A stretch of DNA of 64,000 nt from Gammaproteobacteria bacterium (lineage in GTDB: Bacteria; Pseudomonadota; Gammaproteobacteria; UBA4575), in NCBI GenBank assembly GCA_965221955.1, contig CBDCTA010000026.1, positions 31,920 to 95,919 on the forward strand, read 5' to 3'. Position 1 is the stretch's first letter; every line of letters starts with the position of its first letter. Positions 36,970 to 55,007 of the stretch are shown piece by piece. The notes beneath the pieces were generated by a model that had not been told where the DNA came from, searched no databases, and saw only the letters and a program-made list of their open reading frames with translations. The position numbers and the translations under genes were made by a program.

Positions 36970-37011
36970 TGGTCTGCTGCATAATAAGCATTTCATTGAT
37001 ATCATAAATAT

Positions 37012-37350: not shown

Positions 37351-37416
37351 ATTTTTTCGTTAATTAAATTAGACACTAGAAATCCTTAGTCTGATAAAAT
37401 CTAGTCGGATAACTGT

Positions 37417-37507
37417 GGAGAGATGCCGGAGTGGTCGAACGGGCTCGCCTGGAAAGTGAGTGTGTCCTAATAGGGCACCGAGGGTTCGAATCCCTCTCTC
37501 TCCGCCA
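37417..37507 (+). tRNA. tRNA-Ser(GGA), integration hotspot
   Basis: GGAGAGA/TCTCTCC acceptor stem, anticodon loop CT-GGA-AA (37451-37453), long variable arm, GGTTCGAATCC, encoded CCA. Confidence 0.97.
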
Positions 37508-37758
37508 GCCAGTCTTGTCTCTTGCAAGAGACGCTAGATGTTGAGCAGAAAAGGCCTATTTCTGCAGGGATTTGCGAAAAGAAAAACCTGCAAGGGGCGC
37601 CCTACAATTTGTTTTTGCCCTCAATACTGCCAAAAGTCTCTTTTGTGAATTTCGCGGTGCCCCTTTGGGTAATCCATTGATTGGGTCAAATATAGCTTTA
37701 TTCAGTCTTGTTTACATTATGAATGTCCGCTTTCGGCCAATAGCGGACATTTAAATTT

Positions 37759-38463
37759 CTAGTATTCTACTGCTTTGTACGTTCTACCTTCTATTGGAGG
37801 TGTATCTAACGGCTCAGCATTTTTAAATGTAACTGGAACAGTCTTACATCCATGTAATATAGAATCTTTTGGATATTCAATTGCTCGAATATTGCAATCT
37901 TTATAATCCTTTTCAAAAATCGAAAAGTGTAAATGAGGGTCAAGCGCATAGCCTGATTGACCACTTTTACCTATAACTTGGCCCTGTTTAACTTTTTCTC
38001 CAATCTCAACAAAACTTCCAAAACTTGTTAAATGCACATAAGCAGAGACTCTTCCGTCATCATGTTCTATTGCAATAAAGTTTTGTTTCGTAACATCATT
38101 GGTGTTGTCATCCCAAAGTTCATCAACATTAATCACAACCCCATCTGCTACCGCTACAATTTCATCACCAATTGGCATCGAAAAATCATAGGCAAATTGT
38201 ATATCGCCAACTGAACCACCCTTCATCTCTGAGGCAGGTTGATGTGTGAGCATTCCACAATTGCCTTGGCCTACTACATAGGCTGCACCAACTGGATATG
38301 GGAGGATATATTTTGATTCCTCAGCAGGGGTGTATTCTGATAACCAGCAACCCTTAACATGACCAATACGAACATCATCTTCTCTTGAAATCTCGGTCTG
38401 CTGATTTGTTGTGCTACACGAGAAAACAGATAAAACTATTATTGCTGTAACTATTTTGTTCAT
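37759..38463 (-). CDS. M23 family peptidase, lipoprotein
   Basis: Lipobox VFSC, YDFSMPIG, YVHL, HLHF. Confidence 0.88.
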   Translation of the reverse strand: MNKIVTAIIVLSVFSCSTTNQQTEISREDDVRIGHVKGCWLSEYTPAEESKYILPYPVGAAYVVGQGNCGMLTHQPASEMKGGSVGDIQFAYDFSMPIGDEIVAVADGVVINVDELWDDNTNDVTKQNFIAIEHDDGRVSAYVHLTSFGSFVEIGEKVKQGQVIGKSGQSGYALDPHLHFSIFEKDYKDCNIRAIEYPKDSILHGCKTVPVTFKNAEPLDTPPIEGRTYKAVEY

Positions 38464-38530
38464 GGTAATCCCATATTTTAAAATGTCCGCTTTAGGTCGT
38501 TAGTGGATATATACTTCCCTACAATTGTTT

Positions 38531-39976
38531 CTAATTTCTCACATTTCTTATCATATCCAGATAAGAGTCCAAATGCCCTCTAACAGGCTCATTAATTTCT
38601 TTATTATCTGAAATCTCCATTACTGTATTATCTTTGTTTAATGTAATTAAATTACTTGTAGATTTTCTTGTTATGCCTTGATTTAATTGTTTTTGTTTAT
38701 TTATCGATTCTAATTGCATAGCTAGCTTAGCTTGAAGAGCTTTGTTGCGATCGATTAATTGCTGATTAAGTAACACATACTCTTCTTGTTTAGCTTGACC
38801 TATATGGAAGTATTTAATCTTTTTTTCATATTGATTCTTGAGCATGTCTTGCATGTCACTAAGGGCTAAAATTTTTTCTTGATGTCTTTGTCCTAACAGC
38901 CTTATTTGTAGTAAATATGCTTCGGATTTATTGGGTGAAATTGTTTGTGCAATCTGCAAATACTCTGTTGCAGCTTCGTAATTATTGGTTCGTAATTGGC
39001 TTTCTGCTAATGAAGTGTAGTGTTGATAAATTCGACTGATGCCAAATTGAGCCTCACTATTATCACCATCTATGAGTAATATTTTTTGATATGTCTCTAA
39101 TGCATTGTCTCCTCTTGGAGAGTTGAGTCTCCCCTTTATTAAATGAGAAGTCGCGAGCGCGTGTAGTTCTTTTATAGATTCATTATCTCCTAAATCTTGA
39201 CTGTTGTTAGCTATAATTGGATCGTCGCTTGATAGTGTTTGATCGGTCGAATCTATTTTGTTTAGATTAGAGATGTTCTCCCAAAATGGCGCATCGTTAA
39301 AAACCAATAATCCTATCGTTAACATTAATGCTGCTAACGAACTTGCGGATAGGGCTATAGATAGTTTAATCAAAGAATCTACATTGGCTGCTTTAATCCT
39401 CAACCATTTATTTAACGAATCTACTGACGCACTCTTTATTTTAGGCAAGTTACATATTTTATATACCTTGATGGGTTGTTTGATATTAGGCACTCTGAAC
39501 TTCGCCACATACGAGATTGAGAAAGGAATGTATTTATTCAGCTGCAAATGAGCTTGCTCCGACAAATAAATATCATTGGGCGTAGCAAGCTCTTGCAATC
39601 TCGCAGTTATGTTCACTTCATTACCATAAGGTTCACCTTCATCCAACACAATGTATCCATAGTTGACTCCGATTCGAAAATTTATTTGTTCAGAAGTCGG
39701 CGAATGATTATTAAGATTTGTTGCAGCAGTTTGAATTTCTGAAGCACAATAGACAGCTTCTTCTGATGTTGGGAAAGTCGCCATCACACTATCCCCACGT
39801 AATCGTACAATCGTTCCGCGCTTACTTTTTACTATTTTTTTAATAACTCGAAAACGTTGGGTTAGATTCTCATGCGTTTTTGTTTCATTGGTTTCTGTTA
39901 ATTCTGAATAGTTAACAATATCTGCAAGAAGAATTGCACATTTTATTTGAGTCAGTTTTCCAGATGGGAGATTCAT
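38531..39976 (-). CDS. Class III adenylate/guanylate cyclase domain membrane protein with TPR-like C-terminus
   Basis: ADIVNY, GDS, FRIGVN, G..VN..ARL; one TM; helical repeats. Confidence 0.85.
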   Translation of the reverse strand: MNLPSGKLTQIKCAILLADIVNYSELTETNETKTHENLTQRFRVIKKIVKSKRGTIVRLRGDSVMATFPTSEEAVYCASEIQTAATNLNNHSPTSEQINFRIGVNYGYIVLDEGEPYGNEVNITARLQELATPNDIYLSEQAHLQLNKYIPFSISYVAKFRVPNIKQPIKVYKICNLPKIKSASVDSLNKWLRIKAANVDSLIKLSIALSASSLAALMLTIGLLVFNDAPFWENISNLNKIDSTDQTLSSDDPIIANNSQDLGDNESIKELHALATSHLIKGRLNSPRGDNALETYQKILLIDGDNSEAQFGISRIYQHYTSLAESQLRTNNYEAATEYLQIAQTISPNKSEAYLLQIRLLGQRHQEKILALSDMQDMLKNQYEKKIKYFHIGQAKQEEYVLLNQQLIDRNKALQAKLAMQLESINKQKQLNQGITRKSTSNLITLNKDNTVMEISDNKEINEPVRGHLDSYLDMIRNVRN

Positions 39977-40055
39977 ACTGCACCTCCATTGTCATTTTTG
40001 ACTATATTTCTCGAAATGTTATGTAGCAGTCCTGCTCATGATGTCACAACTATAT

Positions 40056-40195
40056 AGTGATATAAATCACTGATAAATTGTGACAATTATTATTTTCGTT
40101 CTAACGTGTTGATTTTAATCAGTGTGTCTTGTTTTCAGAAATTAAAACTCCTTAACTGTATTCCTTGTTACTAAATCTTAGTGACTAAAGTCACT
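40056..40195. promoter_or_regulatory. Two CRP-like palindromes in a divergent promoter region
   Basis: AGTGA-TATAAA-TCACT (40056-40071) and AGTGA-CTAAAG-TCACT (40180-40195). Confidence 0.5.
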
Positions 40196-40286
40196 TACTC
40201 ATTGAGATAAAAGCACTAGTCTGTAGCTGATAGACAAAATAACGACATCAATATTTGAGACTTCGAATAAGTAGAAGTAATAAAAA

Positions 40287-41021
40287 ATGAGTAAATACGA
40301 GTATTTTACGGTGGGATGCCGATCATTATTAATCGTGATGACCATTAGTTGTAGTGGAGGTGGAGGTGGAGGTGGAGATGGTGTATCACAAGGTACTCGC
40401 GTACCAAACACATCTGTATTTGGATGTTTTTTAGAAGACTATCCTGATCCCACAACTTCTGAATATATTCTTCCTTATCAGGTTGGAATGTCATTTGTAA
40501 TGAATCAAGGTAATTGCGGTCAATTTATTACACACCGACCTATGTGCACAGCAATTAATGCAATGGGACAAATTGTTAGTTGTGGTGACGGTAGATATGC
40601 TTATGATTTTGCTATGCCAATTGGCATAGTAATACTTGCTACTCGCGGAGGAACAGTAACAAATATCATAGACGGGTTTAGCAATTCAACCAACAGAGTA
40701 GACCAAGCTAACTTTATTACGATAGAACATGCTGATGGCTCTGTGGCTTCGTATATCCACTTATCTCCAAATAGCTTTATGGTTAATGTAGGGGATGTAG
40801 TTCTGCAAGGAGACCCGATAGGATTGAGTGGATCTAGTGGTTTTACTGATCCTGGTTTTAGTAATCCACATCTACATTTTAATGTAATTGTTCCTCCTTT
40901 TGATTTTTGTACAACTACTGATTTTTCTGGTTGTCTAACAATCCCTGTGACTTTCAGAAATGCAAACCCATTAGATGCGCCACTTATTGAAGGGAAAACT
41001 TATAGTGCATTACCTTTTTAA
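40287..41021 (+). CDS. M23 family peptidase, lipoprotein (paralog of 37759-38463)
   Basis: ISC + poly-Gly linker, YDFAMPIG, YIHL, HLHF; shares QGNCG and PVTF.NA.PLD motifs with the paralog. Confidence 0.88.
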   Translation: MSKYEYFTVGCRSLLIVMTISCSGGGGGGGDGVSQGTRVPNTSVFGCFLEDYPDPTTSEYILPYQVGMSFVMNQGNCGQFITHRPMCTAINAMGQIVSCGDGRYAYDFAMPIGIVILATRGGTVTNIIDGFSNSTNRVDQANFITIEHADGSVASYIHLSPNSFMVNVGDVVLQGDPIGLSGSSGFTDPGFSNPHLHFNVIVPPFDFCTTTDFSGCLTIPVTFRNANPLDAPLIEGKTYSALPF

Positions 41022-41161
41022 CAGGTGAAATTTAAAGACAGAAATTAGATTGACACCAATGTCCGCTTTGGGTCGTTAGCGGTCATTTTAAGTTTGTAGT
41101 TCATTGATTCCAACCTGTTGCTCCCCTAATTATGTCCGCTTTCGGCCAATAGCGGTCATTA

Positions 41162-41365
41162 CTAAGACTGGATGAAAAAGCTATACGCCAGCACAGCAAA
41201 ACCAAAAATAATAATTCCTATTGGCACTCCACTGTCATAAGACGGATTCATCGAACCTTTATCTGGTAAGACAAACCCAGACTGATACCAAAGAAATACT
41301 CCGAGGATAACTATTCCAACACCAATTAGCATTACGAAATATTTATAAATCAAAGCTTTCTTCAT
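41162..41365 (-). CDS. Small two-TM membrane protein
   Basis: Two hydrophobic helices; fills the space between two hairpin repeats almost exactly. Confidence 0.65.
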   Translation of the reverse strand: MKKALIYKYFVMLIGVGIVILGVFLWYQSGFVLPDKGSMNPSYDSGVPIGIIIFGFAVLAYSFFIQS

Positions 41366-41597
41366 CTAATTATGTATGAATATAAATATCCGCTTTAGGT
41401 CGGAAGCGGTCATATTAAGTCTGTTATTTTGTGATTCCAATCTGATTATCCCTTAAATAGTTTAAATTATGTCTGCTTACGGCCAATAGCGGTCATTCAT
41501 TATAGTGAGTAAAGTATTGAAGCAGATATAATTCATTGATGGTAACTACTCATCATTTCTGCGACACTATTGTCACCTTATCTCATTGGAGTTTGTT

Positions 41598-41942
41598 ATG
41601 GCTACGAAAACGAAAAAAAAGAAATCAGCAAAGAAGCGCACGATAACTAGTATTAAACAGGAATTGACCACCTTAAGAAAGGTAGCCAGGAAAGAAACCG
41701 ATGCTTTGAAAAAGGTGGCTGCGAAAGATACGGCAGCCTTGAAAAAAAAGATAGCTCAGCTAAATGCAAGGAGCAAAAGAGAAGCAGCTGCCCTAAAAAA
41801 GAAGGTCGTCACTGCGGAAAAAAAAGCCGAGGCTGAAATTGCTGCGTTGAAAAAGGCATATACAGCATCAAAGAAAGCTTACACTGCGTCTAAGAAAAAA
41901 GTATCTAAGAAGAAGGTAGAAAGGAAGAAGTCACAAACTTGA
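41598..41942 (+). CDS. Lys/Ala-rich histone H1-like basic protein
   Basis: GGAG RBS before ATG 41598; ALKK repeats, strongly basic. Confidence 0.7.
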   Translation: MATKTKKKKSAKKRTITSIKQELTTLRKVARKETDALKKVAAKDTAALKKKIAQLNARSKREAAALKKKVVTAEKKAEAEIAALKKAYTASKKAYTASKKKVSKKKVERKKSQT

Positions 41943-42156
41943 AATACGAGCAAGAAATAAACATTTTTTTCGATAGATTGAATTCGCAGAACTTATATAA
42001 CCAGATATCTTAGATCGTTTTCGTTGGTAAATATAATGTCCGCTTTCGCTCAATAGCGGACATTGTTAGTCGTAGGGGCTCATTCTTGCCATTCTTGAAT
42101 TGCTTTAACTACTATCGAGCTTTTTCTCAGAATACATAAAAGAGCATTACATAAAA

Positions 42157-42417
42157 CTATTTAATTCTCATTGCTTCCACAACTTCACCGCCATCAACTT
42201 TTGTTAGTGTAGCGCCACAAGCAATAACCTCAGTATCAGCAGGCCAGCTAATTACATAGGACCTATCAATTCGATTGATTTCCCAAACTGAACCATCTTC
42301 AAGAGTTACCATGCTTCCGTCGCTAGTTTTTTCTTTAATCAAGTGGCCTTCATCGCACCCAATCGCTATGGCGGAAAAACTTAACAACACTATGAAAGCT
42401 AATTTTAATGTCTTCAT
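42157..42417 (-). CDS. Small exported protein
   Basis: Signal peptide, two Cys, LEDGSVW beta-rich motif. Confidence 0.7.
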   Translation of the reverse strand: MKTLKLAFIVLLSFSAIAIGCDEGHLIKEKTSDGSMVTLEDGSVWEINRIDRSYVISWPADTEVIACGATLTKVDGGEVVEAMRIK

Positions 42418-42549
42418 TCTTATTACCCTTGAATCGCTCTAGCTATTCTCGAAAAGTTTCCCAGATTCGTTAAAGAATATAGCTGAAAGCTAATGATTAA
42501 TTGATTTAAATCATAAAAATTATCATGAGTATTTAGCTAGAATAACGTT

Positions 42550-42742
42550 GTGCTAAGCGGGTTAGCACAGTACGTTGGATAGCCAGTTGAGGGAGTAATT
42601 ACACCAGGCTAGCTAACGAAAACCAAATAGTGGTTTGCCTAACTGCCGATTCGCCATCCTCAAGGCGTGGCTTGAAAAGGTACAAAATTAATCCGTAAGA
42701 AGCCCCGTCTATAAACTAGTATTAATGAGATGGGGCTTTTTT
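42550..42742 (+). ncRNA. Candidate structured sRNA with FNR-like promoter and terminator
   Basis: TTGAT-N4-ATCAT at 42501, TAGAAT at 42538, several helices, terminator 42701-42742, no ORF. Confidence 0.5.
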
Positions 42743-42887
42743 ATTTGTTCCACTATAATTATGCCGCTAATTATTCAGCATGTCCGAATTGGGTCGTTAG
42801 CGGTCATTTTGAAGATTTGTTTTGAAGATTCCAACCTGACTTTCCCTAAATTTATTTAAATTCTGTTCGAATTCGGCCAATAGCGGA

Positions 42888-43356
42888 CATTTAGTAAGAG
42901 GACTCATTGCGTAGTATAGAGTCCTGTATTGTAGAGAACACTCATTAAGGATGCAGTTATAGTAGTAGAGACTGAATGCCTAGCATGCAGTCCAAGCGAA
43001 CTTCGGTTCCGTTTTATGCTCAAATTCGAAGGAAAGATTAAAAATTTGTCTCTGCGGCAAGTTCAGGTAGTTTTTCTCACAAGAATTCAGGAGCTTGCAG
43101 CTCAAAGGGGCACCGAGGATTCGAATCACCTTCTCTCCGCCAGCCAGTCTTGTCTCTTGCAAGAGACGCTAGATGTTGAGCAGAAAAGGCCTATTTCTGC
43201 AGGGATTTGCGAAAAGAAAAACCTGCAAGGGGAACCCTACATTTCGTATTTGCCCACATTTCTTCCAAAAGTCTCTTTTGTGAATTTCGCGGTGCCCCTT
43301 TGGGTTAGCTATTGATTGGGTTAACTATAGCTTTATTCAGTTTTATTTACCTTGAG
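42888..43356 (+). repeat. Junction repeat copy 1: right end + tRNA-Ser 3' fragment + left end
   Basis: Closely similar to 43883-44299; the distal part also matches 37473-37720. Confidence 0.92.
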
Positions 43357-44137
43357 AATGTCCAATTACGGCTAAAAGCGGACATTAGTATTTTTAAGTG
43401 TGTGGTATTTTTTTAGTTAAAAAAACCTACAAATTATCCCTTAAACCAAGTTCTTACTAGCATTCATTTATAGATATATCCGAAATATAGATTTCGGAGA
43501 TATATTCGCTCGCCTTTTATTCAAAAGGTCTTGAATTAACTTGTTTTATAAGGATAAGTTTCAATGAGATATGGGCCTAACGCTAAAAAAGAATTTCAAA
43601 AAATGATTGAAAAAGCTTGTAAAGATAGCCTTGTTACACCAAAAGAACTACTAAAGGAACTTGTAAGTTCTGGATATAAACATTTTTATGACTTGGAAAT
43701 CACTTTAGATGATTTAAAGGCAGTGTGTGAAGATCTTGAAGATAGCAAGGAAATTGCAGAGCTGTGGAGTCATAAAAGCGGTGTAAGAACAGATTATGAA
43801 ATTAGTGATTGAAATAGAAATATCTGACCACTACATAATCACTCCCTCAAATAAGTTAATGTCCGCTTTGGGTCGTAAGCGATATTTAGTAAAAGGACTC
43901 TTTGCGTAGCAAAGAGTCCTGTATTGTAGACAGCTCTCATTAAGGATGCAGTTATAGTAGTAGAGACTGAATGCTTAGCATGCAGTCCAAGCGAACTTCG
44001 GTTCCGGTTTATGCTCAAATTCGAAGGAAAGATTAAAAATTTGTCTCTGCGGCAAGTTCAGGAAGTTTTTCTCACAAGAATTCAGGAGCTTGCAGCTCAA
44101 AGGGGTACCGAGAGTTCGAATCTCTTTCTCTCCGCCA
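43143..44137. mobile_element. Integrase-less mini unit 2 (995 bp, one cargo gene)
   Basis: Left end, hairpin 43357, 82-aa ORF, hairpin 43858, right end, tRNA-Ser 3' copy 44103-44137. Confidence 0.75.
43564..43812 (+). CDS. Hypothetical protein, sole cargo of unit 2
   Basis: AGGA RBS, 82-aa charged ORF between hairpins. Confidence 0.6.
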   Translation: MRYGPNAKKEFQKMIEKACKDSLVTPKELLKELVSSGYKHFYDLEITLDDLKAVCEDLEDSKEIAELWSHKSGVRTDYEISD

Positions 44138-44299
44138 ATCAGTCTTGTCTCTTGCAAGAGACGCTAAATGTGGTGCAGATAAGGCCTATTTCTGCAGGGA
44201 TTTGCGAAAAGAAAATCATGCAAGGGGCACCGTCCATTTCTTTTTTTGCCCTCAATGCTGCCAAAAGTCTCTTTTGTGATCATCAAGGTGCCCCTTTGG
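43883..44299 (+). repeat. Junction repeat copy 2 (left end truncated at the tRNA-Met remnant)
   Basis: Matches 42888-~43303. Confidence 0.92.
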
Positions 44300-44303
44300 C
44301 TTT

Positions 44304-44381
44304 GGCTATTCAAATGTATATTGGTAGAGCACTGTCTTCATAATGCTGGGGTCGGTGGTTCAAGTCCACCCATAGCCACCA
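44304..44381 (+). pseudogene. Degenerate tRNA-Met(CAT) / att remnant
   Basis: GGCTAT...ATAGCC-ACCA acceptor, intact T arm GGTGGTTCAAGTCCACC, CAT loop; D arm and anticodon stem mispaired. Confidence 0.75.
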
Positions 44382-44606
44382 CTTTCGAAACTAACTAATT
44401 GTTTTTATTAAAACGCATTGGGCGATCGCAACGCTTAATTTCTTTTTTGTGCACAACAAAGCACAACGAGTCCGTCATAAGTCCGTCAGTAAGAACTTAT
44501 AAAAATTGATAACGATCCAATATACTCAGCTGACTGTAAATAACGCATGTGTTTGAAACGTAAGATCGAAATGGAAATTCAATGCTACTTTGTAAAGTAG
44601 TAATGC

Positions 44607-46309
44607 TTAAAATAATCCTCGGATGTCTCCAGATTCGGTATCAATATCGATATGCCTAAAAGCGGGATCTGAAGCAGTCCCTGGCATAAGTTTCAAACTA
44701 CCTGTCACAGGAACCAATAAACCTGCACCGGCATATATAAGAATGTCTCGAATAAATAAGCGCCAATTCTCAGGTCTACCTTTTTTATTCGGATTGTCAC
44801 TAAGGCTTAGAGGAGTCTTAGCTATGCAAACATGAAACTTCCTAACGGCTTTATCTTGATTAATGTGATGTAATTTTTCTTTGGCAGTTGGTGTATAGGA
44901 TATATCTTTAGCGCCATAAATCTCTGTTGCAATGGTTTTGATCTTTTCTTCAACAGAAATATTTTCAGGATATAAACAGTGAAAGTCTGCTTCTGTATTG
45001 CATGCATCGATTACTGTTTCAGCAAGTTCGAGTGAACCTTCACCACCTTGTTCAAAGTGTTTAGAAACCGCGAATTTTATACCTGCCTGTTGGACAGCTT
45101 TCTTCACGTGATCTATTTCTTCATCATGGTCAGTCGTGAAATGGTTTAGACAAACCACTGGTGAAATGCCACATTTATTGATGATATCTATATGCGCCCA
45201 TAAATTTTCAAGACCTTTTTCTAATAAGCTTAAATTCTTTTGTGTATATTGATCACTTAAAGGTTTACCAGGCTTAACTGGAGGACCACCTCCATGCATT
45301 TTGAGAGAGCGTATGGTAGCAACTAGTACAATACAATTAGGAGCAAGCCCACTTAGTCGATATTTAATATTCCAAAATTTTCAAAACCTATATCGGCCCC
45401 AAATCCACTTTCTGTCACATGGTAATCGGTAAGCTTTAAACCAACTTTGTCTGCGATAATGGATGATTGACCTAATGCTATATTTGCAAAAGGTCCGCAA
45501 TGTACAAGCAGTGGTTGACCTTCAAGAGTTTGTAATAAGTTTGGCGCGATTGCTTTAGATAACATTGCAGTCATTGCGCCATCGACTTCTAAATCTTTTG
45601 TTGTAATAGGTGTGTTATCTTTAGAGTACGCGACTATCATCTTTGAGATGCGTTCACGCATATCCTTCATACTCGTACAAATAGATAAAATAGCCATCAA
45701 CTCAGAAGAGACGCTTATTTGGAATCCGCTTTGCAGCATAAAGCCATCGGTTTTATCGCCTATACCTATAATAATTTCTCGCAGAGATTGCGCGCATAAA
45801 TCGATAGCCCAATTTATAGAGAGATTTCTTGGATCGATGTTAAGTCGCTTAAGGTGTTTATGTTCTAGAGTTTGATCAGAATAATTAAATTCATGTTGAA
45901 GACGGCTAGTAAGTGCAACCATTCCAAGATTATGCGCATTGGTGATTGCGTCGAAGTCTCCAGTTAAACCAAGACTAAATTCTGAGAGAGGCACGCAATG
46001 CGCTAATCCACCACCTCCAGCAGAACCTTTAATGTTAAATGTGGGACCACTTGAAGGTTGGCGAATCGCGCCAGTAACTTTCTTATTCAATTTGCCTAAA
46101 GCTTGGATCAAGCCAATTGTGGTGGTGGTTTTTCCCTCGCCAAGAGGCGTAGGCGTAATCGCAGTTACATCAATATATTTGCCAATAGAAGATTGTTCGC
46201 GTCTTTTGAGTATTTTTGAGTGATCTAATTTTCCTATGTGATGTCCATAAGGAATATATTCTGTTTTATCTAAGCCAAGTTCATTGGCAAGTTGGTCTAT
46301 TGTTTTCAT
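44607..46309 (-). pseudogene. fhs: Formate-tetrahydrofolate ligase, one frameshift at ~45380
   Basis: TPTPLGEGKTTT, GPFANIA, TESGFGAD, IAKTPLS, MPG; one missing A in GAAAA restores FEKFWNIK. Confidence 0.92.
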
Positions 46310-46344
46310 TGATGAAGCGTATGTTGAAAGTAAATTCTGACGCC

Positions 46345-46358
46345 TTGATTTAAATCAA
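46345..46358. promoter_or_regulatory. FNR box (perfect)
   Basis: TTGAT-TTAA-ATCAA in the fhs divergent promoter region. Confidence 0.7.
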
Positions 46359-46529
46359 TATCAGCTAAGACATGTTCAAGTATTATTTTAAGTCGCTAAA
46401 ATAATAAGTACATTTCTTCATGAAAAAATCTACTACAACTGTTCGCAATGCTTTGTTATTACTAGCATGCATTATTGTATTTCTTGTTTGTGCAGCTATC
46501 ATTGCTCGTTCACTTGGATAAATAATTTT

Positions 46530-47038
46530 ATGAAACGACTTTGTTTTCTCTCACCAGACCTTGAGCATGCCAAAACGGTCATTCAAGATTTAAAGGATAA
46601 TGATATTAAGGAAAAGCATATCTACACGATTGCAAAATCAGGTACACCCTTGGGAGATTTGCCTGATGGGGTCCAGACGATGATGATTTTCTACCTGCAT
46701 TTGAGCGCGGTGTGGCACTAGGTGGTGTGACTGGTATATCTTTAGGTCTTGTTGCAATGGCATTTCCTCCTGCAGGACTCGTAGTAGGAGGAGGGGCTAT
46801 CTTGTTAATAGGCCTCATGGGGGCGAGTGTAGGGGGATTGCTTACGGGTATGGCGGGAGCTGCCTTTCCTAGTTCACGTCTCGAAAAATTTGAAAGTGAA
46901 ATCGATGCGGGAAAAATACTTATTATGGTAGATGTGCCTGTTGATCGGGTCGAACATTTCAATCGACTTATTAAAGATTTTGACCCTGAAATTGAGATTG
47001 AAGGAATAGAACCACCAGCTCACTTAATTCCTAAATAA
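46530..47038 (+). pseudogene. DUF1269-like membrane protein, frameshift at G run ~46670
   Basis: Joining the two ORFs gives MKRLCFL...PDGGPDDDDFLPAFERG, Gly-rich TMs, then FESEIDAGKILIMVDV. Confidence 0.7.
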
Positions 47039-47091
47039 ACATACTTGAATATCGTTCAAATTGTTTGCATATATAATAGCCAACATAAAAA

Positions 47092-47325
47092 ATGCCAAGC
47101 GAATTTGAGCATGTTGAAATTCTTATTCTAGAAGATCTGAGTCTTTCACAACGTTCAATGCTCATTGCAAAACTCGACCATGAAAGAGGGATTATCCAAG
47201 CATGGTTTGATCCTGAGAACCATCACCACCTTATTGTCGAGTATGGGCGTGATCATTTTAGCCATCTTACGTTATTAGATTTTATTAAATTACATGGATT
47301 TCATGGAAAGATTGTGAAAATTTAA
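47092..47325 (+). CDS. Small HMA-fold-like protein without CxxC
   Basis: Pattern GI..AWF...HHHLIVEY.......LL..I...G. Confidence 0.55.
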   Translation: MPSEFEHVEILILEDLSLSQRSMLIAKLDHERGIIQAWFDPENHHHLIVEYGRDHFSHLTLLDFIKLHGFHGKIVKI

Positions 47326-47377
47326 TTTTGTATTCACACAAGAGATCTAAATATTGGTGAATATTAAACTACATAAG

Positions 47378-47740
47378 CTAAGTTTCGACTTCATCTTTAG
47401 GATTCGGAAGCCCTGCTAATTTGCAAAGCATGCGAATTGGCCCATGTGGAAATAGTTCATACAGAAAAGTTTTATAGCTCTCCTCATCAGAAAACTTTTT
47501 GTTCTCAAGTTTTGCGCGACTAGCAAGCAGCTTATGCATGCTCGGATGTGTCATATGCATTTCATAGTATTCTCTAAAGAAGCTGATTAGCTCCCATCCA
47601 GTTTCAGTAATCGGTTTATGTCCTTCAGATACATGCTGTTTTATTATTTGCTCCGCAACTTGTTCATCCCAATCATCTGGGGTAATTAGATAACCTTCAT
47701 TATCAGTTTCAATAATTTTATTATTTACTTCAATAGACAT
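47378..47740 (-). CDS. DsrC/TusE family protein lacking the C-terminal Cys
   Basis: TDNEGYL...DW, LFP.GP, CKLAGLP.P; ends KDEVET. Confidence 0.85.
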   Translation of the reverse strand: MSIEVNNKIIETDNEGYLITPDDWDEQVAEQIIKQHVSEGHKPITETGWELISFFREYYEMHMTHPSMHKLLASRAKLENKKFSDEESYKTFLYELFPHGPIRMLCKLAGLPNPKDEVET

Positions 47741-47818
47741 CTATCTGCTCCTTCTAATTGCTTCTTATTTCAATTTAGTGAACTAATATAAGAATAAATT
47801 TATTTATTTGTAATTCAT

Positions 47819-48277
47819 TTAGTGCTTAAAGCTGTTACCACACCTACGCCCAAGTCCTCGTCCATTTCGCGGCATACTCTCGCGTTCGACACAACGTTCA
47901 AAGGCCGGCAGGTGGTTGTCACGTGAGGCAGCTTGCAAACATTGCAAAACTTCTAATACATCAGGAAAATCAGTGGCGTTGATTAGTCGCTCATACATAG
48001 CGATGTTTTCAATTTCTCCCGCTACACCATCTTCACACGCTTTTAATAGGTCAGAATGAATTAGTATTCGATCAAGATCTGGTTCTGGAGGTACTGAAAT
48101 ATTGTATTTTTCATAAAGCGGTAACAGCATTTCTATATGTGCTTGTTCAGATTCAACGATATTAATAAAGGGACGCACTGGACCGAATTTATTGATAACT
48201 TTTCGGTACGTGTCTCTGGCATTGTATTCGTCCATTAAGGCCTCATTGAGTACTTTTGCTAATGTGTTTTTATTCAT
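47819..48277 (-). CDS. Ferritin-like (DUF2202-like) protein
   Basis: DEY.A...Y, PF.NI..SE..H, EIENIAMY, S..NHLPAF. Confidence 0.8.
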   Translation of the reverse strand: MNKNTLAKVLNEALMDEYNARDTYRKVINKFGPVRPFINIVESEQAHIEMLLPLYEKYNISVPPEPDLDRILIHSDLLKACEDGVAGEIENIAMYERLINATDFPDVLEVLQCLQAASRDNHLPAFERCVERESMPRNGRGLGRRCGNSFKH

Positions 48278-48292
48278 TATCTATTCTCATTT

Positions 48293-49040
48293 CTAGTTTG
48301 TATCTAATATTTTTAATAATAAAAGAAGCGATATACCAATAATAAAAAACAAAAAACTAATAAAGTTTTCTTTTAGGTTGCCATGTTTATTGATTTCAGG
48401 AACGAGATCAGATGCTGCAATATAGATAAAATTTCCAGCAGCAAAAGGTAAAAGAAAGGCAACATCAAATTTTGTTGATGCACTATATGCAATTAATCCA
48501 CCAATGAGGAATGTAAAGCCAGAAAAAAAATTAAACAATAAAGCGCGATTTTTTTTAAAACCACCGTGAATTAGAACTCCAAAATCCCCAAGCTCCTGTG
48601 GTATTTCATGAGCTGCAGCGGCAATCCATGTGGTTATTCCAATACGAATATCTATTAAAAATGCGCCTGCAACCGCCATGCCGCCAATAAAATTATGGAG
48701 GCCATCACCTAATAAAATGAGGTAGGTAAGTGGCTGTTTACATTCAGAGGATGCTTTATGGCAATGATGCCAATGTAGGAATTGTTCTAAAATAAAAAAT
48801 ACTGTAAAGCCAATAATGACCCATATAAATGTAGAAATTTGAATTCCATCTGTCTCGAGCGTAGCCGGAATCATATGAAAGGAAAGCGCCGCCTAGTAAG
48901 GAGCCCGCAGATAGAGCTACTAAATGTAAGATAACTTTATCTAAAGTGCTCTGTTTGATGAACAGAGTTACACTGCCAATCAACGCGATGGAGCTCATTA
49001 ATATACCGCCGACGATAATCCATGTAAGTGGATTCGTCAT
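48293..49040 (-). pseudogene. ZIP family metal transporter, frameshift ~48880
   Basis: GDGLHNF, HEIPQELGDF, GNFIYIA; N-terminal half in another frame. Confidence 0.88.
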
Positions 49041-49091
49041 TTAGTAACTTCTAAATAAGTTGATATCTTTTGCAAAGACAACTAAAAACTT

Positions 49092-49670
49092 TCAAGCAGC
49101 TACGGTAGTAGTAGATGGGATGCTGTAAATTTTCGGGTCGTAGGCAGCATGCTTGGATAGGATCTCCATTGCTTGTTTCTCATGATCCTCATCGCGTGTT
49201 CTTACAAATAAAACAAGACGACCACGATCTACTTGTTCCTCGAGATACTCAGCATGACTTTGATGAATTAGCGAGCCTATCACTGCTCCAATACCGCCAA
49301 TTACAGCAGTAGTTGCTGCAGCTGTTATCAGTGCACCACCCAATACACCCGCGGTAGCCACTATTGCGCCTCCTGCAACAGCAGCCCCAGTTATAAACAA
49401 GGTGCCAAATAGGGCATGAGGTACATCACCGATAGATTCTTTAGCAACAAAGGCAGTTTGAGGTGCATCTGGACTATCTATATCTTTATTTACTTCTTCA
49501 TATATATGTCCCAGTTTCTCTTTCACGGTGAAGTCACCTGCTAGAAGACCTAGCTCTTCATTTTTAAACCCTGCAGCTTTGAGGTCCTCAACCGTCTCCT
49601 CAATTTTCTCAACTTTAAAAAAGATACCCACTGCTTCTCGAATATCGGCTGATTGTTTATCGTTTTTCAT
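49092..49670 (-). CDS. Membrane protein, general-stress-protein-like
   Basis: EAVGIF...L..AGF, Gly/Ala-rich TM hairpin, G.LVLFVR. Confidence 0.7.
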   Translation of the reverse strand: MKNDKQSADIREAVGIFFKVEKIEETVEDLKAAGFKNEELGLLAGDFTVKEKLGHIYEEVNKDIDSPDAPQTAFVAKESIGDVPHALFGTLFITGAAVAGGAIVATAGVLGGALITAAATTAVIGGIGAVIGSLIHQSHAEYLEEQVDRGRLVLFVRTRDEDHEKQAMEILSKHAAYDPKIYSIPSTTTVAA

Positions 49671-49860
49671 TTTTATGATCCCACCTTTTCAATTGTGAAG
49701 ACTGCCTGAATTACAGAATCAAATCTTGGTTTTAATCAAAATTAGCATAATTTAGTAAAGTCAAGGTTGCTTGATATGGGTCAACTTTTTTTCATATATC
49801 TAAAATAAAATTTGACGTTTAGGGTTTCACATAATCATATGCATATATCGGAGAGAAATA

Positions 49861-50346
49861 ATGACAGCAATAACAGCAACTAAAATAGATATTGGTATCA
49901 ATGAAGAAGATCGCATAAAAATAGCGGAGGGATTAAAACGATTGCTAGCTGACTCCTATACCCTTTATTTACAGACACATAACTTTCATTGGAATGTAAC
50001 AGGGCCTCAGTTTCATGAATTACATATTATGTTTGAAGACCATTACACGGAATTAGCTGTAGCTGTGGATGATATCGCTGAGAGAATACGTACACTTGAT
50101 ATACCTGCACCTGGAACCTATTCAGAATTTTCCAAGTTAAGCTCAATTAATGAAGTCGAGGGCGTACCTTCAGCTAATGAAATGGTGAATTTATTAACGA
50201 GTGGGCATGAAAAAGTAGTTAAAACATGTCGGAGTGTTTTAAAAGTCGCTGAACAAGCTGATGATGAATCTACGGCAGCGCTTGTATCGGATCGTATGCG
50301 AATTCATGAAAAAACAGCTTGGATGTTAAGGGCTATAAACCAATAA
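49861..50346 (+). CDS. dps: Dps DNA-binding ferritin-like protein
   Basis: [29 protein letters not shown]. Confidence 0.96.
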
Positions 50347-50437
50347 ATTTTATATTGTTGAATTTATGGCGACTTTTTGGTCGAACAGGACAAAAATTAA
50401 AGGGTAACAAGTTGGGTTCGACGAATAACACTTCTAT

Positions 50438-51077
50438 AATGACTGCTCACAACCAAAAGCGGACGTTTAAACAAGCTCTATCAAATAATCAATAAATGTT
50501 ACAAGTAAATTCTTTGATAGATGATGGCGTGGAGAAGTAGCAATAGAAACCAAACATTAGGGAAGATTGTTTGGATAGGAATTCCAACTCACCACATTCC
50601 CCACACCTCCATAAAGATAAATCTGTTAGCTGATAGCACCCCACTTACGCCACTTTTTCATTGGACCAGTCTCTGGAGTAGTTGTTTTGTGATAGTTGTG
50701 ACTCTCAGGGTTATTACAATAACCACAGGCTTTGTGCGCTTATAGTTTTCCCATCCTCAGAGAGTTTGCGTATACCACCCCAATATTTACAAGTAGCACA
50801 TTTACCTTCTGTATCAGAGGACATTTCAAAATGTAATCCAGCTTTTGCAGAAGATGAAGCAATACCTCCTGCAGTAGCTAAAGCAAATAAAGCGCCCGTT
50901 TTGCCTAGTAATTCTCTACGATTTATCTTTGTTTTATCCATGGTATCTCCTTGTTCATATACGATAATGGAGACTACAGAAATATTTAAATATAAATTTG
51001 ATTTATATCAATTACGAAGTGTAAGTTAAGTAATTCAAATATTAGCGAATGACCACTATTGGTTGAACGTGGGCATT
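50438..51077 (-). repeat. Two reverse-oriented 30-bp hairpin repeats flanking one gene
   Basis: Reverse complements: 50438-50467 AACGTCCGCTTTTGGTTGTGAGCAGTCATT; 51048-51077 AATGCCCACGTTCAACCAATAGTGGTCATT. Confidence 0.7.
50626..50941 (-). pseudogene. Tat-exported small Cys-motif (HiPIP-like) protein, frameshift ~50725
   Basis: NRRELL Tat motif, CATCKYW; removing one base gives GYCNNP...GPMKKWRKW; perfect FNR box at 50998-51011. Confidence 0.6.
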
Positions 51078-51128
51078 CTGATTATTGGGAGTTTGCGCTA
51101 ATATATAAAAAAGGTTAGGGGCCATGTA

Positions 51129-51972
51129 ATGAGTTTCTCTGTTCTAGTTTGGAACGTCCAGAAATTTAGAGGCGAAAGTCAAAGCCGCATTGATGATGTC
51201 GTTGAGCATATACGAGCTGCTGATCCTGATATCTTTGGGAATTATCGAATTAGAAAAACCCGCTAAAGCTGTTGCCCGTCAACTTATCGTCGAAGAGTTC
51301 ACTGACTACGACTTTGCAATTACTGACTCAAAAAAACAAATAGATTTCCTGATTGGTTGGAAGATCAATATATTTGAACAAATACTCTTTACTCAACGCA
51401 GAGATTTCCAAGAGGGAAACATAAACCTTCGACCAGGAGGTCTCCTAAGCGTCCGACTTCCGAATGAACAGGCATTCCACAATGTTCTCTTCCTCCACAC
51501 TGACAGTGGCAAAACCTTAGAAGAATACAAACGTCGACAAGCGATGTTTAAAAAGATCTGGAGTTTGCGAGGTGCACTTGAAAATCTTCCGGTTCAACAA
51601 GGGGTCGCCCGCTTGGTGGCTTTGGGTGACTTGAATACCATGGGTCGATCTAGAACGAATACATTGCCAACACTTAAAGCTGCAACAGAGATTGATGATT
51701 TACGAGCGGATGCACTTGCGAAGGGGATGCGGGTACTCAGTAAGTCAGCTTCACTTACTTATAGGAGTGCTGGAGGTCATCTTAAGGGGAACTTAGACCA
51801 CGTGCTGGTGAGTAGTGATTTAGATGTAGAGTTATGGACTGATCCTGCGCAAGAGTTTAGTCCGTTTGAGGTTGAAGTTACTGGTTGGAATCTATTAGAT
51901 GAGCCAGAAAGGACGAGTTTTATAGAAGATGTAAGTGATCACTGTGCTTTATTTGTGGAAGTAATTACGTGA
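51129..51972 (+). pseudogene. Endonuclease/exonuclease/phosphatase family protein, frameshift ~51238
   Basis: WNV...DIFGIIE after removing one G; GDLN, LDHV, SDH. Confidence 0.82.
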
Positions 51973-51985
51973 GTTTAGCTGAGTT

Positions 51986-52900
51986 TTATATTTGGATTGC
52001 TTTTTGATGTGTGACCATATTTTTAACAAGAGCAACACCTAAATGATTTTCTATAATTTTGTAGCAATTAGAATTCATTGTAGTATGGGATATTGCAATG
52101 ATGTACATTTAATAGCGCATCTTGTAGTTTTTGATCTTCTTCTAGAACTTCTATATTTAGACCTAAATCAATACATTCTTGTAATTCAACATGTCTATCG
52201 TGTAATTTTTGTTGTGTCACATCAGATAATGAATTAGTTATTCTTTCTGATTTGGCTTCAGCTTCATCGTTATTTTCAAACATACAGTTTTGTAGTTGTT
52301 GCTTTACAAATTGCTTAGCAAGATGAGTCGCGTTGTATGCTTGTTCTAAAAAACCAAGTTGGTATTTTTGTAATATAGGGTGCCAAACTAATGCGCGTGT
52401 TTGATCATTTTTTATTTCGACATGCGCACGTTCAAAGTCATTAATTATAGAATATGCTGAGAAACCACCAATTTGAGGGTCAATTGGGCCAAGGTTGGAC
52501 TGTTTCCCCATTACAATTGATTTGCATGAACAAGCAATCATAGTTCCCAGCCGACATAGCTAATTGCGGGATTAATACACGTATATCATTTCCAAACATT
52601 GAATGTAAATAATTTGTAATCGACTGTGCGGCAGTTAAACCCCCACCAGGTGTATGTAATATGAGATCAAGACCTTTTGTTCTATCCATTTTATGAATTG
52701 CCATCATAAAACCATTTTTATCTTCATCGTTTATCGCCATTTCGGGTGTGTTCGGTTTACTTAACCATCCAGAATAGTACGTAATCACGTTTCTTTTAGT
52801 ATAGTTATGATATGCTTTGAGATACTTTCTACGAACACCATCACTAGGTGAAGTTGGGAATGTATTAATTTCCCTGTAGTATTTGATTCCAGTTAGGCAT
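51986..52900 (-). pseudogene. ClpP-like (SDH/S49-type) serine protease, about three frameshifts
   Basis: MPNWNQIL start, LDLILHTPGG, AMSAG(T)MIA, LGPIDPQ, H.RH, KIIEN. Confidence 0.82.
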
Positions 52901-52937
52901 GACTTTTTAACCTTCAAAATAACTTTGTAAAAAAATT

Positions 52938-53132
52938 ATGAGCGAAAAAGATAAAATTGAATCTACATATAAGTTTATTTCACAGCAATTTGAAAATATA
53001 AACGAAGTTAGTCCCGACCTTTTAAAACAGCTCGAATTTAACCAAAAAGTTTATAGCCAAATTGATTCAGATGAATATTATTACGAAACATTTGGTTCTT
53101 GTGATGCATTCAATTCTACACCTACAAAGTAA
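52938..53132 (+). CDS. Hypothetical small acidic protein
   Basis: 64-aa ORF with protein-like composition. Confidence 0.4.
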   Translation: MSEKDKIESTYKFISQQFENINEVSPDLLKQLEFNQKVYSQIDSDEYYYETFGSCDAFNSTPTK

Positions 53133-53384: not shown

Positions 53385-55007
53385 CTACTCAGTTAGCCAA
53401 TTTAATGATGTGGAATCTTTAAAGCTTTCTAGCTTAACTGTATTGGGTACTGATCCAGATTTAATTTCATTCAATAGTGTGGGGGATAAGTAAGCCAATA
53501 TTAAGATACGTCGAATATAACTAACCATAACGTTTTCTTTTTGTGCAATTTCTCGTAAGGACATAAATGATCCATCCAATAAATCTTGATTCCATTCAAT
53601 TGCCTTAGCAACCTTTCTTTGAATTACTTGAGTTGAAGAAGAATTTGGCACAGAATTTTTTCCATTAAGCATCAAAGTTTGTCCTTTACCCTGTTGCTGC
53701 CACTGAATAGCTTGCTTAAGAATATAGTTATCTCGCTTAATTGGATCTAAGCCAAATAAAATAGCTAACTTATCTCTTACTATATGAAGAGCCAGATCAT
53801 TCTTGTTAATGATTATTTTTTGTATAGATGGCAGTAATTTGATTAGTGCTTCATTAGTATACTTCTTCGGTAAAAGTAATTTAGTCTGCTTAGTGACTAT
53901 ATTTATCAACGATAACTCAGGTTTATCGTATCCGATAATATCAAGTACTTTCTGAGGATCTGAATAGGTTTGTTGAATCGTTTTATAAACAGCATTTTCA
54001 ACTTCATCTGCAGTTACACGTGAAATAGAGCCGGCCAAACTGTCTTGGTGTTGCAACAGGGCTTGACTTACATAATACCGATAACGTTTTTTGCCTTTTT
54101 TACTATGTGAGGGTGACATACGATGTTCACGATCATCAAACAGTAATCCAGTTAAAAGACTTCGTCCCTTTGCGCCCAATCGATGTATGTTTTCATGATG
54201 ATTCAGTCGTAGTATGGATTGAGTTTGTTTCCAAACATCTAAATCTAAAGTAGCTTTGTGCTCACCTTCAAAGACCTGATCTTTGTGTCTTACTTTGCCA
54301 ATATACAAAGGATTTTTAAGTATCTTATACAATGCTCCACGACTGAAAGATTTGCTTTGCTTGGTTTTGTGTTTAGTTTGATCCAAGTGATGTTTTAATT
54401 TTCGGACTGATTTGAGTTTTATATATTGATTAAAAATGTAGTGAATGGTTTTCGCTTCTTTTTTATTAATTACTAATAACCGCTCTTTAACATCATAACC
54501 AAGCGGAATGGGACCTCCCATCCACATGCCTTTTTTCTTTGAGGCGGCAATTTTGTCTCGAATCCGTTCTCCGGTGACTTCACGTTCAAACTGTGCAAAG
54601 GAGAGCAGTACATTTAAGGTTAATCGACCCATGGAACTGGACGTATTGAATTGTTGCGTCACCGATACAAAGGAGACTTCATGCTCATCAAAGAGCTCCA
54701 CCAGTTTGGCAAAATCTGCCAACGAACGTGAGAGTCGATCGGCTTTATAGACCACTACAATATCAATCCGCTTTTGTTTTATTTTCTCGATCAGATTGGT
54801 TAGAGCAGGGCGCTTGATATTTCCGCCTGAGAACCCACCATCATCATAATGTTCTTTTATTAACGTCCAGCCTTCATGCTTTTGACTGTTTACATACGCC
54901 TCACAAGCTTCACGTTGGGCATCCAATGAATTAAAACTCTGATCTAAACCTTCATCGGAGGATTTACGGGTATAGATGGCACAACGTTTGATTGGTTTAT
55001 TGGCCAT
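53385..55007 (-). CDS. Large serine recombinase
   Basis: CAIYTRKSS catalytic motif, DRLSRS, SFAQFERE, PLGY, NPLYIG recombinase domain. Confidence 0.95.
   Translation of the reverse strand: MANKPIKRCAIYTRKSSDEGLDQSFNSLDAQREACEAYVNSQKHEGWTLIKEHYDDGGFSGGNIKRPALTNLIEKIKQKRIDIVVVYKADRLSRSLADFAKLVELFDEHEVSFVSVTQQFNTSSSMGRLTLNVLLSFAQFEREVTGERIRDKIAASKKKGMWMGGPIPLGYDVKERLLVINKKEAKTIHYIFNQYIKLKSVRKLKHHLDQTKHKTKQSKSFSRGALYKILKNPLYIGKVRHKDQVFEGEHKATLDLDVWKQTQSILRLNHHENIHRLGAKGRSLLTGLLFDDREHRMSPSHSKKGKKRYRYYVSQALLQHQDSLAGSISRVTADEVENAVYKTIQQTYSDPQKVLDIIGYDKPELSLINIVTKQTKLLLPKKYTNEALIKLLPSIQKIIINKNDLALHIVRDKLAILFGLDPIKRDNYILKQAIQWQQQGKGQTLMLNGKNSVPNSSSTQVIQRKVAKAIEWNQDLLDGSFMSLREIAQKENVMVSYIRRILILAYLSPTLLNEIKSGSVPNTVKLESFKDSTSLNWLTE

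Follow-up and report, generated by a model that had tools for sequence, protein, structure and literature searches.

A tandem array at the 3′ end of tRNA-Ser(GGA)

The window analysed here is a 64,000-nucleotide stretch of the genome of an uncultured marine bacterium, of the UBA4575 lineage of Gammaproteobacteria (assembly GCA_965221955.1, contig CBDCTA010000026.1). This genome (G000, 96.6% complete) also includes contigs C11, C14, C18, C20, C23 and C29. Downstream of tRNA-Ser(GGA), the sole tRNA called by ARAGORN in the window, lie two units of 5,635 bp (unit 1) and 995 bp (unit 2) that have the same ends, no cargo in common and no recombinase. We propose that they form a tandem array of integrative units at the tRNA 3′ end, together with a distal element that encodes a large serine recombinase (LSR). 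The array comprises the following features, all on the plus strand:

37417..37507, tRNA-Ser(GGA) (ARAGORN; Rfam tRNA, 56 bits), its 3′ end being the attachment target
37473..37507, core copy 1, the last 35 nt of tRNA-Ser(GGA)
37508..37722, left arm L1 (P′ arm), with a cross-genus conserved module at 37508-37668
42886..43107, right arm R1 (P arm, type 1), with GAGAC, GTCTC, box GAATTCAGGAGCTTGCAG and a hairpin at the outer edge
43108..43142, core copy 2, a tRNA-Ser 3′ end mimic, 31/35 identical
43143..43357, left arm L2, from repeat and BLAST comparison
43881..44102, right arm R2 (type 1), from repeat and BLAST comparison
44103..44137, core copy 3, a tRNA-Ser 3′ end mimic, 31/35 identical
44138..44299, left arm L3, retaining the ~161-nt conserved module alone; likeness to L ends at 44299

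Each of the two mimics carries four mismatches to the tRNA, all at least 11 nt from the 3′ end, and the chance expectation for such 35-nt matches in the window is ~5e-10. The mimics differ from each other at 5/35 positions. The same left arm (L) lies behind each of the three cores, and the same right arm (R) lies ahead of cores 2 and 3. A repeat finder paired 37473-37761 with 43108-43396 (289 nt, 89%) and 42886-43185 with 43881-44180 (300 nt, 93%). BLAST gave 90.2% over 430 nt for the first R-core-L junction against the second, and 87.8% over 197 nt for L1 against L3. Cross-genus conservation of L is limited to its first ~161 nt, and in L1 this module includes a palindrome (GTCTCTTGCAAGAGAC), a box (GCCTATTTCTGCAG) and another GTCTC, the third. 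Each junction holds five GTCTC/GAGAC motifs in the same relative places, compared to 0.42 expected from the window rate (Poisson P ~8e-5), and we read these as putative protein-binding sites. An initial annotation, made from the sequence alone, had described the recurring tRNA end, the three left ends (the third truncated), the two right ends, their GTCTC/GAGAC motifs and the recombinase-less units with differing cargo. All of these were confirmed. The recombinase search comprised Pfam on the seven unit ORFs and six-frame genome searches with PF00589 and PF00239, and found none in units 1 and 2.

The arms are non-coding. An open reading frame (ORF) that spans the junction (43016-43315) was considered as a gene and rejected, with substitutions spread evenly over codon positions (9/12/8, 7/6/2 and 15/15/16) and stop codons in the related genome G011. 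RNAalifold on 28 L copies found no shared RNA fold besides a 6-bp palindrome, which co-varies (UA to CG in four copies). At gathering score, Rfam matched nothing but the tRNA in 36500-46500.

Assembly duplication, which the initial annotation had named as a possible refutation, is ruled out by the divergence of the copies and by a second strain in the same assembly, whose contig C11 has unit 2, its junction and L3 as well, with 96.8% identity. The L3 of C11 is a chimera, with the first ~130 nt L2-like and the end L3-like.

The serine recombinase and its island

The LSR gene lies 9.3 kb past core copy 3, convergent to it, and is the sole resolvase-domain gene in the genome (six-frame PF00239 search), with no L remnant directly downstream of it. 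It is part of the following module:

53385..55007, minus strand, LSR of 540 aa (Pfam Resolvase PF00239, E 2e-38), 3′ end toward L3
54997..55485, minus strand, DUF2924 protein (Pfam PF11149, E 1e-28; phrog_11806)
55489-56991, minus strand, terminase large subunit (Pfam/PHROG)
56948-57364, minus strand, phrog_26239 protein (PHROG)
57354-58676, minus strand, ParB-like nuclease/DNA methyltransferase fusion (Pfam/PHROG)

Residues 10-162 of the LSR match PF00239 (E 1.6e-38), and the protein has a match to the TP901-1 integrase catalytic domain (E 3.7e-24). The C-terminal part matches the Recombinase domain (PF07508, E 2e-14) and, over residues 168-344, the A118 integrase C-terminal domain (E 2.5e-6). 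The protein also matches the phrog_95 integrase. The pair formed by LSR and DUF2924 recurs in G010, G011, G019 and G071, and DUF2924 is the constant partner of this LSR clade. Capsid or tail PHROG matches are absent among the window ORFs scanned, where the terminase is present, and among the 29 ORFs scanned of the first G071 element, which carries the same module.

Left arm and recombinase occur together across the family

A comparison of 56 genomes of the bacterial family was used to follow L and the LSR. In 14 rows from 12 of these genomes, the sequence downstream of tRNA-Ser(GGA) reads CCGCCA-NNN-AGTCTTGTCTCT-N4-AGAGA...GCCTATTTCTGCAG. The strict L pattern is present in 16/56 genomes, and in 0/13 genomes of genus g3. 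Unrelated sequence follows tRNA-Ser(GGA) at 16 loci: 14 in two other genera, one in G014 (same genus) and one in G022. Because L is absent from these unoccupied tRNA-Ser sites, it is element DNA. Viral contigs gave 0 matches to the L pattern.

The loci of G014 and G022 have peculiarities of their own. In the complete genome G014 (locus L033), tRNA-Ser(GGA) lacks L and lies in reversed orientation with respect to the conserved DUF1820 gene upstream. At locus L029 of G022 (5470-6000), the real tRNA-Ser comes after a tandem triplicate of a ~123-bp stretch that comprises the tRNA-Ser promoter and 5′ end, and between the tRNA and a 19-nt core copy plus L there is an insert of 176 bp.

LSR homologues gave 15 matches in 9/56 genomes. 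All except one, a partial gene in G011, are convergent to a tRNA-Ser 3′ end or a junction copy (14/15), at a distance of 0.2-9.3 kb. In four cases the gene lies ~0.2 kb from tRNA-Ser(TGA) or tRNA-Ser(GCT), a gap near the length of L. The distance to tRNA-Ser(GGA) is 1.4 kb in G071, 2.1 kb in G066, 3.4 kb in G019 and 7.8 kb in G010, while that to junctions is 2.2-5.4 kb in G068, G071 and G011, compared to the 9.3 kb of the window. The same L follows the tRNA in the LSR-bearing elements of G010, G019, G066 and G071 and in the window units. The interval from L to the LSR, which has no genes in common among genomes, is a cargo slot. Between G000 and G011, R and L are 81-84% identical and the LSR protein 76%. 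The order tRNA, LSR-less units, LSR-bearing element is found in G000, G011 and G068.

The serine recombinase at 53385-55007 had been put forward as the likely enzyme, with a search for homologous left ends downstream of serine recombinase-DUF2924 genes elsewhere suggested as a check. That search was positive in the relatives. With a single such gene in the genome, and a clade that sits at tRNA-Ser 3′ ends marked by L-type sequence, this LSR is well supported by sequence comparison as the probable enzyme for the units.

Two types of right arm

The right arm was found to occur in two types. Type 1 has the pattern ...GAATTCAGGAGCTTGCAG...AAAGGGG.ACCGAG..TTCGAATC...CTCCGCCA and bounds both window units as well as units in C11, G011, G019, G021, G022, G062 and G068. 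It is also present on three marine metagenome contigs. A search with this pattern returned seven matches in public genomes (six real) and five in metagenomes (three real), all from this lineage or from marine contigs. Type 2 has the pattern CCCTGTAAATTGGCTGTTTAACAGGG...CCAACCACCGCCA. In G010, where a single LSR-bearing element of 42.8 kb is present, it forms the right end with a clean attR. Three LSR-bearing elements that stand in tandem, with attP-like junctions, in the complete genome G071 end in it as well (34.7, 31.1 and 55 kb). LSR-less units bounded by type 2 are found in G036 (three, of 27.2, 10.1 and 7.9 kb) and in G032 (one, of 8.6 kb), and G000 has one copy, on C20. The window queries had revealed no R or core copies beyond the LSR in G010, G011 and G019; the type-2 attR was found later, in G010 alone.

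LSR-bearing elements with a known right end are of type 2 in 4/4 cases, and LSR-less units comprise ~8 of type 1 (1.0-28.9 kb, five genera) and four of type 2, these being plain counts from a small sample of related genomes, with no statistical test. LSR-less units with the same arms occur in seven other genomes: in addition to those of G036 and G032, they measure 28.9 kb in G011, 7.4 kb in G062, 3.0 kb in G068, ~1.9 kb in G022 and ~4.2 kb in G019. Neither PF00589 nor PF00239 matched inside these units in the five genomes searched (G011, G036, G032, G062 and G068).

Two sets of junctions lie away from tRNA-Ser(GGA). At locus L030 of G019, two type-1 junctions (2208-2431 and 6430-6821), each preceded by a hairpin, are found ~600 kb from this tRNA. 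The first retains ~17 nt of L, pointing to either genome rearrangement or secondary-site use. On C20 (7080-7427), a complete type-2 junction (R2-CCGCCA-L, 1-161) lies between genes for a PP2C phosphatase and an ArsR-rhodanese protein with no tRNA near, and may be part of an unassembled continuation of the window island.

The recombinase clade at tRNA genes across phyla

To place the window LSR in its clade, 79 loci were taken from species-representative genomes of many phyla, with LSRs 42-74% identical to it. A convergent tRNA lies 163-659 bp past the LSR stop codon at 26/79 loci. Half of these tRNAs (13/26) are tRNA-Ser with four anticodons, the rest being Gln, Met, Ala, Tyr, Lys, Thr, Phe and Ile. 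Within 6 kb of the LSR, 37/79 loci have a convergent tRNA or tmRNA, while the first downstream tRNA is co-oriented with the LSR at 0/79. The chance expectation for this convergence is <1%, as a rough estimate from tRNA density. At many of these loci NNN-AGTC directly follows the CCA end, and a box like AATTC.GC.GG.TT, counterpart of GCCTATTTCTGCAGG in L, lies 45-65 nt in.

Cargo of the units

Between their arms, the two units carry the following genes:

37759..38463, minus strand, unit 1 M23 peptidase, 234 aa (Pfam PF01551, E 8e-21)
38531..39976, minus strand, unit 1 nucleotide cyclase with a TPR-like tail, 481 aa (Pfam PF00211, E 3e-12)
40287..41021, plus strand, unit 1 second M23 peptidase, 244 aa, an inverted paralogue of the first (inverted repeats I1 and I8)
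41162-41365 (minus strand), 41586-41942 (plus strand) and 42157-42417 (minus strand), three small familyless ORFs of unit 1, within 41059..42890
43358..43886, plus strand, unit 2 cargo: hairpin 43358-43385, 82-aa ORF 43564-43812, hairpin 43859-43886

Four of the seven ORFs are without a Pfam match, the others being the two M23 peptidases and the cyclase. PADLOC and PHROGs returned no matches for the small cargo ORFs. The unit 1 cyclase shows weak likeness to the Pycsar cyclase PycC (PADLOC PycC, E 8.5e-11), and the stretch 37759-41021, in which it is flanked by the inverted M23 paralogues, may be an unusual defence or signalling cassette. Hairpin doublets or single hairpins stand between the small ORFs of unit 1, at 41059/41132, 41386/41469, 42036 and 42780/42863. 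Homologues of the 82-aa gene are bracketed by hairpins in the order B-gene-A in two other genomes, elsewhere than at the array (2/9 loci).

The 28-nt hairpin repeat

The hairpins belong to a single 28-nt repeat, of which the copy nearest the tRNA is:

37723..37750, plus strand, 28-nt hairpin repeat of B type, at the inner edge of L1

Allowing up to 3 mismatches, the window holds 11 strand matches (8 sites), compared to 0 in 100 shuffles, and the whole genome holds 185 strand matches, compared to 0 for a reversed control. With up to 5 mismatches there are 165 distinct sites on 18/29 contigs. Eleven sites lie between 37723 and 43886, seven of them within unit 1. The hairpins are often paired as A-B doublets 73-83 bp apart, and dense arrays of them are found on other contigs. 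Those at C23:10825-23303 and C14:4286-8403 are co-oriented, have a spacing of ~0.4-1.5 kb and start beside xerD-dsbC; the two xerD copies are identical and probably represent the two strains.

Type-1 R has the hairpin at its outer edge in three places (G019, the window and metagenome contig L192), and L has it at its inner edge in G000 and G011. The initial annotation had regarded hairpins as a property of the unit ends, and the units as shuttles for hairpin-bounded cassettes. Several genomes do have hairpins bordering L on its inner side and R on its outer side. They are not special to the units, with 165 sites genome-wide, and the repeat is a dispersed one resembling repetitive extragenic palindromic (REP) sequences and REPINs. 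Like these and like integron attC sites, it consists of short dispersed extragenic palindromes that often form inverted doublets and bracket single genes. Unlike them, it occurs without a REP-associated tyrosine transposase (RAYT) or an integron integrase, the genes have mixed orientation and there is no evident R′/R″ consensus. RAYT (PF01797) was not found in the 96.6%-complete genome. An IntI-type integrase, expected of an integron, is likewise absent from it (integron-integrase models scored far below cut-offs), and the ORFs lie on both strands, contrary to an integron or a cluster of attC sites lacking an integrase (CALIN). The recombinase beside two of the hairpin arrays scores as XerD (402 bits, above cut-off). 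Four tyrosine recombinases are present in the genome: a duplicated XerD, a likely XerC and a 437-aa integrase on another contig. The tail of L shows weak likeness to the spacer of the hairpin doublets, from which no claim is made.

Neighbouring sequence and the two strains

Two further features lie between L3 and the LSR:

44300..44510, plus strand, decayed 3′ fragment of a tRNA-Met, with ~130 bp from the left end of another island family; no tRNA call
44607..53132, both strands, variable cargo between L3 and the LSR (Pfam), with no homologue at the same place in relatives

The variable cargo includes a formate-tetrahydrofolate ligase (split), DsrC-like and DUF2202 proteins, a ZIP transporter, a ferritin-like protein and an SDH-type protease (split), among others. 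The ligase is in two ORFs (44607-46309) and the SDH-type ClpP-like protease in two overlapping ORFs (52068-52917), both pseudogene-like.

The 44300-44510 stretch also follows real tRNA-Met genes on C18 (188412-200624) and C29 (20331-20646). On C18, two further copies at 6 and 12 kb form another tandem array, and on C29 the 437-aa tyrosine integrase lies 17 kb away. The piece within the tRNA-Ser array stems from a second, tRNA-Met-based island family.

The sequences of the two strains in the assembly match as far as 44432 and again from 59361 (window compared to C11:15914-20282). Between 44433 and 59360, one strain has 14.9 kb including the LSR module, while the other has 4.4 kb with three familyless ORFs and no LSR.

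Proposed mechanism

We consider that a tRNA-Ser-specific LSR built the array at the 3′ end of tRNA-Ser(GGA) as a series of tandem integrative units, of which units 1 and 2 are non-autonomous and LSR-dependent, and assign this model a probability of about 0.7. L would be the element arm beside the tRNA (P′), and R together with the 35-nt tRNA mimic would be the other arm (P). Hence, each R-core-L junction would correspond to an attP-like site that joins two units. The LSR would bind the tRNA-Ser 3′ end (attB) and R-CCGCCA-L (attP), with strand exchange most likely occurring within the CCGCCA that ends the tRNA or immediately past it. attL and unoccupied sites have the same sequence as far as CCGCCA and show no relation past it. 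On their left side, type-2 junctions have only CCGCCA in common with the tRNA, which in those genomes retains its own acceptor stem. From both comparisons we infer the above crossover position. As insertion would leave the tRNA intact and regenerate the target, newcomers would stack beside the tRNA. Units 1 and 2 would have been inserted, and maybe also excised, by the LSR of the distal element, and the layout seen in G000, G011 and G068 fits an order in which the newest arrival lies nearest the tRNA.

Units 1 and 2 thus resemble cis-mobilizable elements (CIMEs), and are probably LSR-less members of a family of capsid-less islands that encode LSR, DUF2924, terminase and ParB-methyltransferase. 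Their att sites match those of an autonomous element. Recombination and transfer genes are absent from the window units and from seven units of five relatives, and the units stand in tandem to the element whose LSR is their presumed cognate integrase, a layout that recurs in G011 and G068.

Several observations weigh against this model. For the window's own LSR-bearing element, no right end could be located: no R-type sequence follows 44299 in the window, at whose end the contig also ends. The truncated L3, the tRNA-Met-type fragment and the split cargo genes indicate that the island is partly decayed. Type-1 R is found on 0/4 LSR-bearing elements with an identified right end, and its recognition by the LSR is assumed. 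G032 has a unit yet no resolvase-domain gene in its whole genome, so some units are stranded without an LSR. The chimeric L3 of C11 shows that plain homologous recombination reshapes the array too. There is no direct sign of movement: the comparison of strains, itself a suggested check, reproduced unit 2 and its junction, and it found unit 2 in the same place in both, at 96.8%. In a public read run, 26% of sampled words of the stretch were present; reads on 36800-45200 amount to 2x contigs, with gaps over most of the units and joints only at the hairpin, and are thus uninformative about circles and empty sites. Furthermore, attL is not a target of classical LSRs, for which sites of ~50 bp suffice (~40-50 bp, having a 2-bp crossover and no extended identity). 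Stacking beside the tRNA, for which an occupied site (formally attL) would have to be the target, and conserved arms of 160-220 bp are thus unexplained by textbook LSRs, and the stronger conservation of these arms relative to the LSR gene is beyond textbook behaviour.

A more specific version of this model is tentative, and we would sooner doubt it than adopt it. The type-1 R-core-L would be the attachment site of a dedicated, evolutionarily persistent lineage of integrase-less miniature elements, down to 995 bp in size, that parasitises the LSR of the terminase islands, with its members serving as docking platforms that exchange single-gene cassettes at the hairpin edges. If true, a serine-recombinase att platform and REP-like hairpins would together make a two-tier cassette system, integron-like in function, and terminase islands that are themselves probable phage parasites would be parasitised by miniature elements.

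Alternative explanations

The units could instead be fossils that arrived as full LSR islands, lost their interior, e.g. by deletion from hairpin to hairpin, and are now immobile scars. The split cargo genes and truncated L3 do speak of decay, and the exact placement of the hairpins, bordering L on the inside and R on the outside, is as expected of deletion endpoints. The shared position of unit 2 in both strains and the LSR-free G032 also fit. However, both arms are complete in every unit examined, and between G000 and G011 they are better conserved than the LSR protein. The presence of type-1 R on ~8 LSR-less units of five genera and on none of the four LSR elements fits a separate non-autonomous lineage better. 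We therefore regard fossil remnants as unlikely.

It is very improbable that homologous recombination produced the array, with one junction multiplied by unequal crossing-over, cargo swapped in later and no site-specific integration. The chimeric L3 of C11 is a signature of exchange between repeats 88-94% identical, and such exchange can reshape the array but not explain its origin. The units share no cargo, their cores differ mutually at 5/35 positions and at four from the tRNA, and the same junction architecture bounds unrelated content in seven other genomes.

We give hardly any credence to a hairpin cassette array, integron- or REPIN-like, that starts at tRNA-Ser by chance and carries the R-core-L blocks as passengers between hairpins. 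The 11 hairpins in 37723-43886 do bracket single genes, R-core-L stands between A- and B-type hairpins like a doublet spacer, the 82-aa gene is bracketed B-gene-A in 2/9 loci and dense arrays exist elsewhere in the genome. In contrast, neither an integron integrase nor a RAYT is present, cassette orientation is mixed, the L tail has no convincing likeness to the doublet spacer, and the same L with type-2 R bounds units in genera without the hairpin. None of these three explanations accounts for the association of the LSR with L.

Classical tyrosine-integrase islands with a lost integrase can practically be dismissed: a 35-nt tRNA 3′ repeat and ~200-bp arms with short repeated boxes resemble a lambda-type attP, and tRNA genes are credited mostly to tyrosine integrases (PMC10484663), but no PF00589 match was found in or beside the arrays examined in six genomes, and L lies beside LSR genes in 14/15 cases.

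Comparison with known systems

The 995-bp unit, with its one 82-codon gene, approximates a minimal natural 'attP plus cargo' module. It provides a defined substrate for asking how an LSR re-uses an occupied site, and what role the 160-220-bp arms, the five GTCTC boxes and DUF2924 have compared to the ~50-bp textbook reaction. A natural LSR/attB pair at a universally conserved tRNA end is also a possible integration tool.

CIMEs and their accretion are known from streptococcal integrative and conjugative elements and integrative and mobilizable elements, where att-flanked elements devoid of recombination and transfer genes lie in tandem to an autonomous relative at a tRNA 3′ end. The window units are similar in being att-flanked, without recombination genes, tandem to an autonomous relative and, in our model, dependent on its integrase. 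The streptococcal elements use tyrosine integrases and conjugation, whereas here a putative mobility would rest on an LSR of a terminase-carrying island. For the capsid-less LSR/DUF2924/terminase islands, the nearest published kind is the phage satellites of the phage-inducible chromosomal island (PICI) type.

Our literature searches returned no account of an LSR/DUF2924 family located at tRNA genes, nor of recombinase-less units belonging to it. Papers retrieved on DUF2924 concerned Wolbachia only, and those joining large serine recombinase, tRNA-Ser and attB concerned pneumococcal phages only. The closest described system is that of the Dehalococcoides ssrA islands (McMurdie et al. 2011, PMC3146451), which lie in tandem downstream of the tmRNA gene, separated by direct repeats of its 3′ end. 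In these islands, a 540-residue serine recombinase, DsiB, is encoded on the reverse strand beside attL, a ParB-domain gene belongs to the integration module, and 15 islands without this module are read as cis-mobilizable elements moved by accretion. The window array shares the tandem arrangement at a tRNA-like gene, a 540-residue serine recombinase (DsiB being likened to the window LSR from its published description), ParB and module-less islands. It differs in its tRNA-Ser target, in having DUF2924 rather than the small recombinase DsiA as partner, and in the presence of a terminase. The arms are L of 161-215 bp and R of 60-220 bp, as opposed to a 20-bp repeat and a 15-bp motif, the crossover probably falls at the CCA end rather than the T-loop, and the smallest unit is below 1 kb.

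The tycheposons of Prochlorococcus (bioRxiv 10.1101/2020.12.28.424599) likewise belong to marine bacteria, integrate serially at tRNA genes and leave partial tRNA copies between elements, with newcomers pushing older elements inward and degenerate remnants persisting. In contrast, 910/937 use tyrosine recombinases, many carry replication genes, and the available text of that description mentions neither long shared arms nor 1-kb recombinase-less units. What is new here is a minimal unit of 995 bp, arms that are both long and conserved, and an R type found on LSR-less units only. Islands at tRNA genes are usually credited to tyrosine integrases (PMC10484663). Here, a clade of serine recombinases appears to fill that role at tRNA-Ser and, in a range of phyla, at further tRNAs and at tmRNA, building tandem arrays and having recombinase-less companions that carry both arms.

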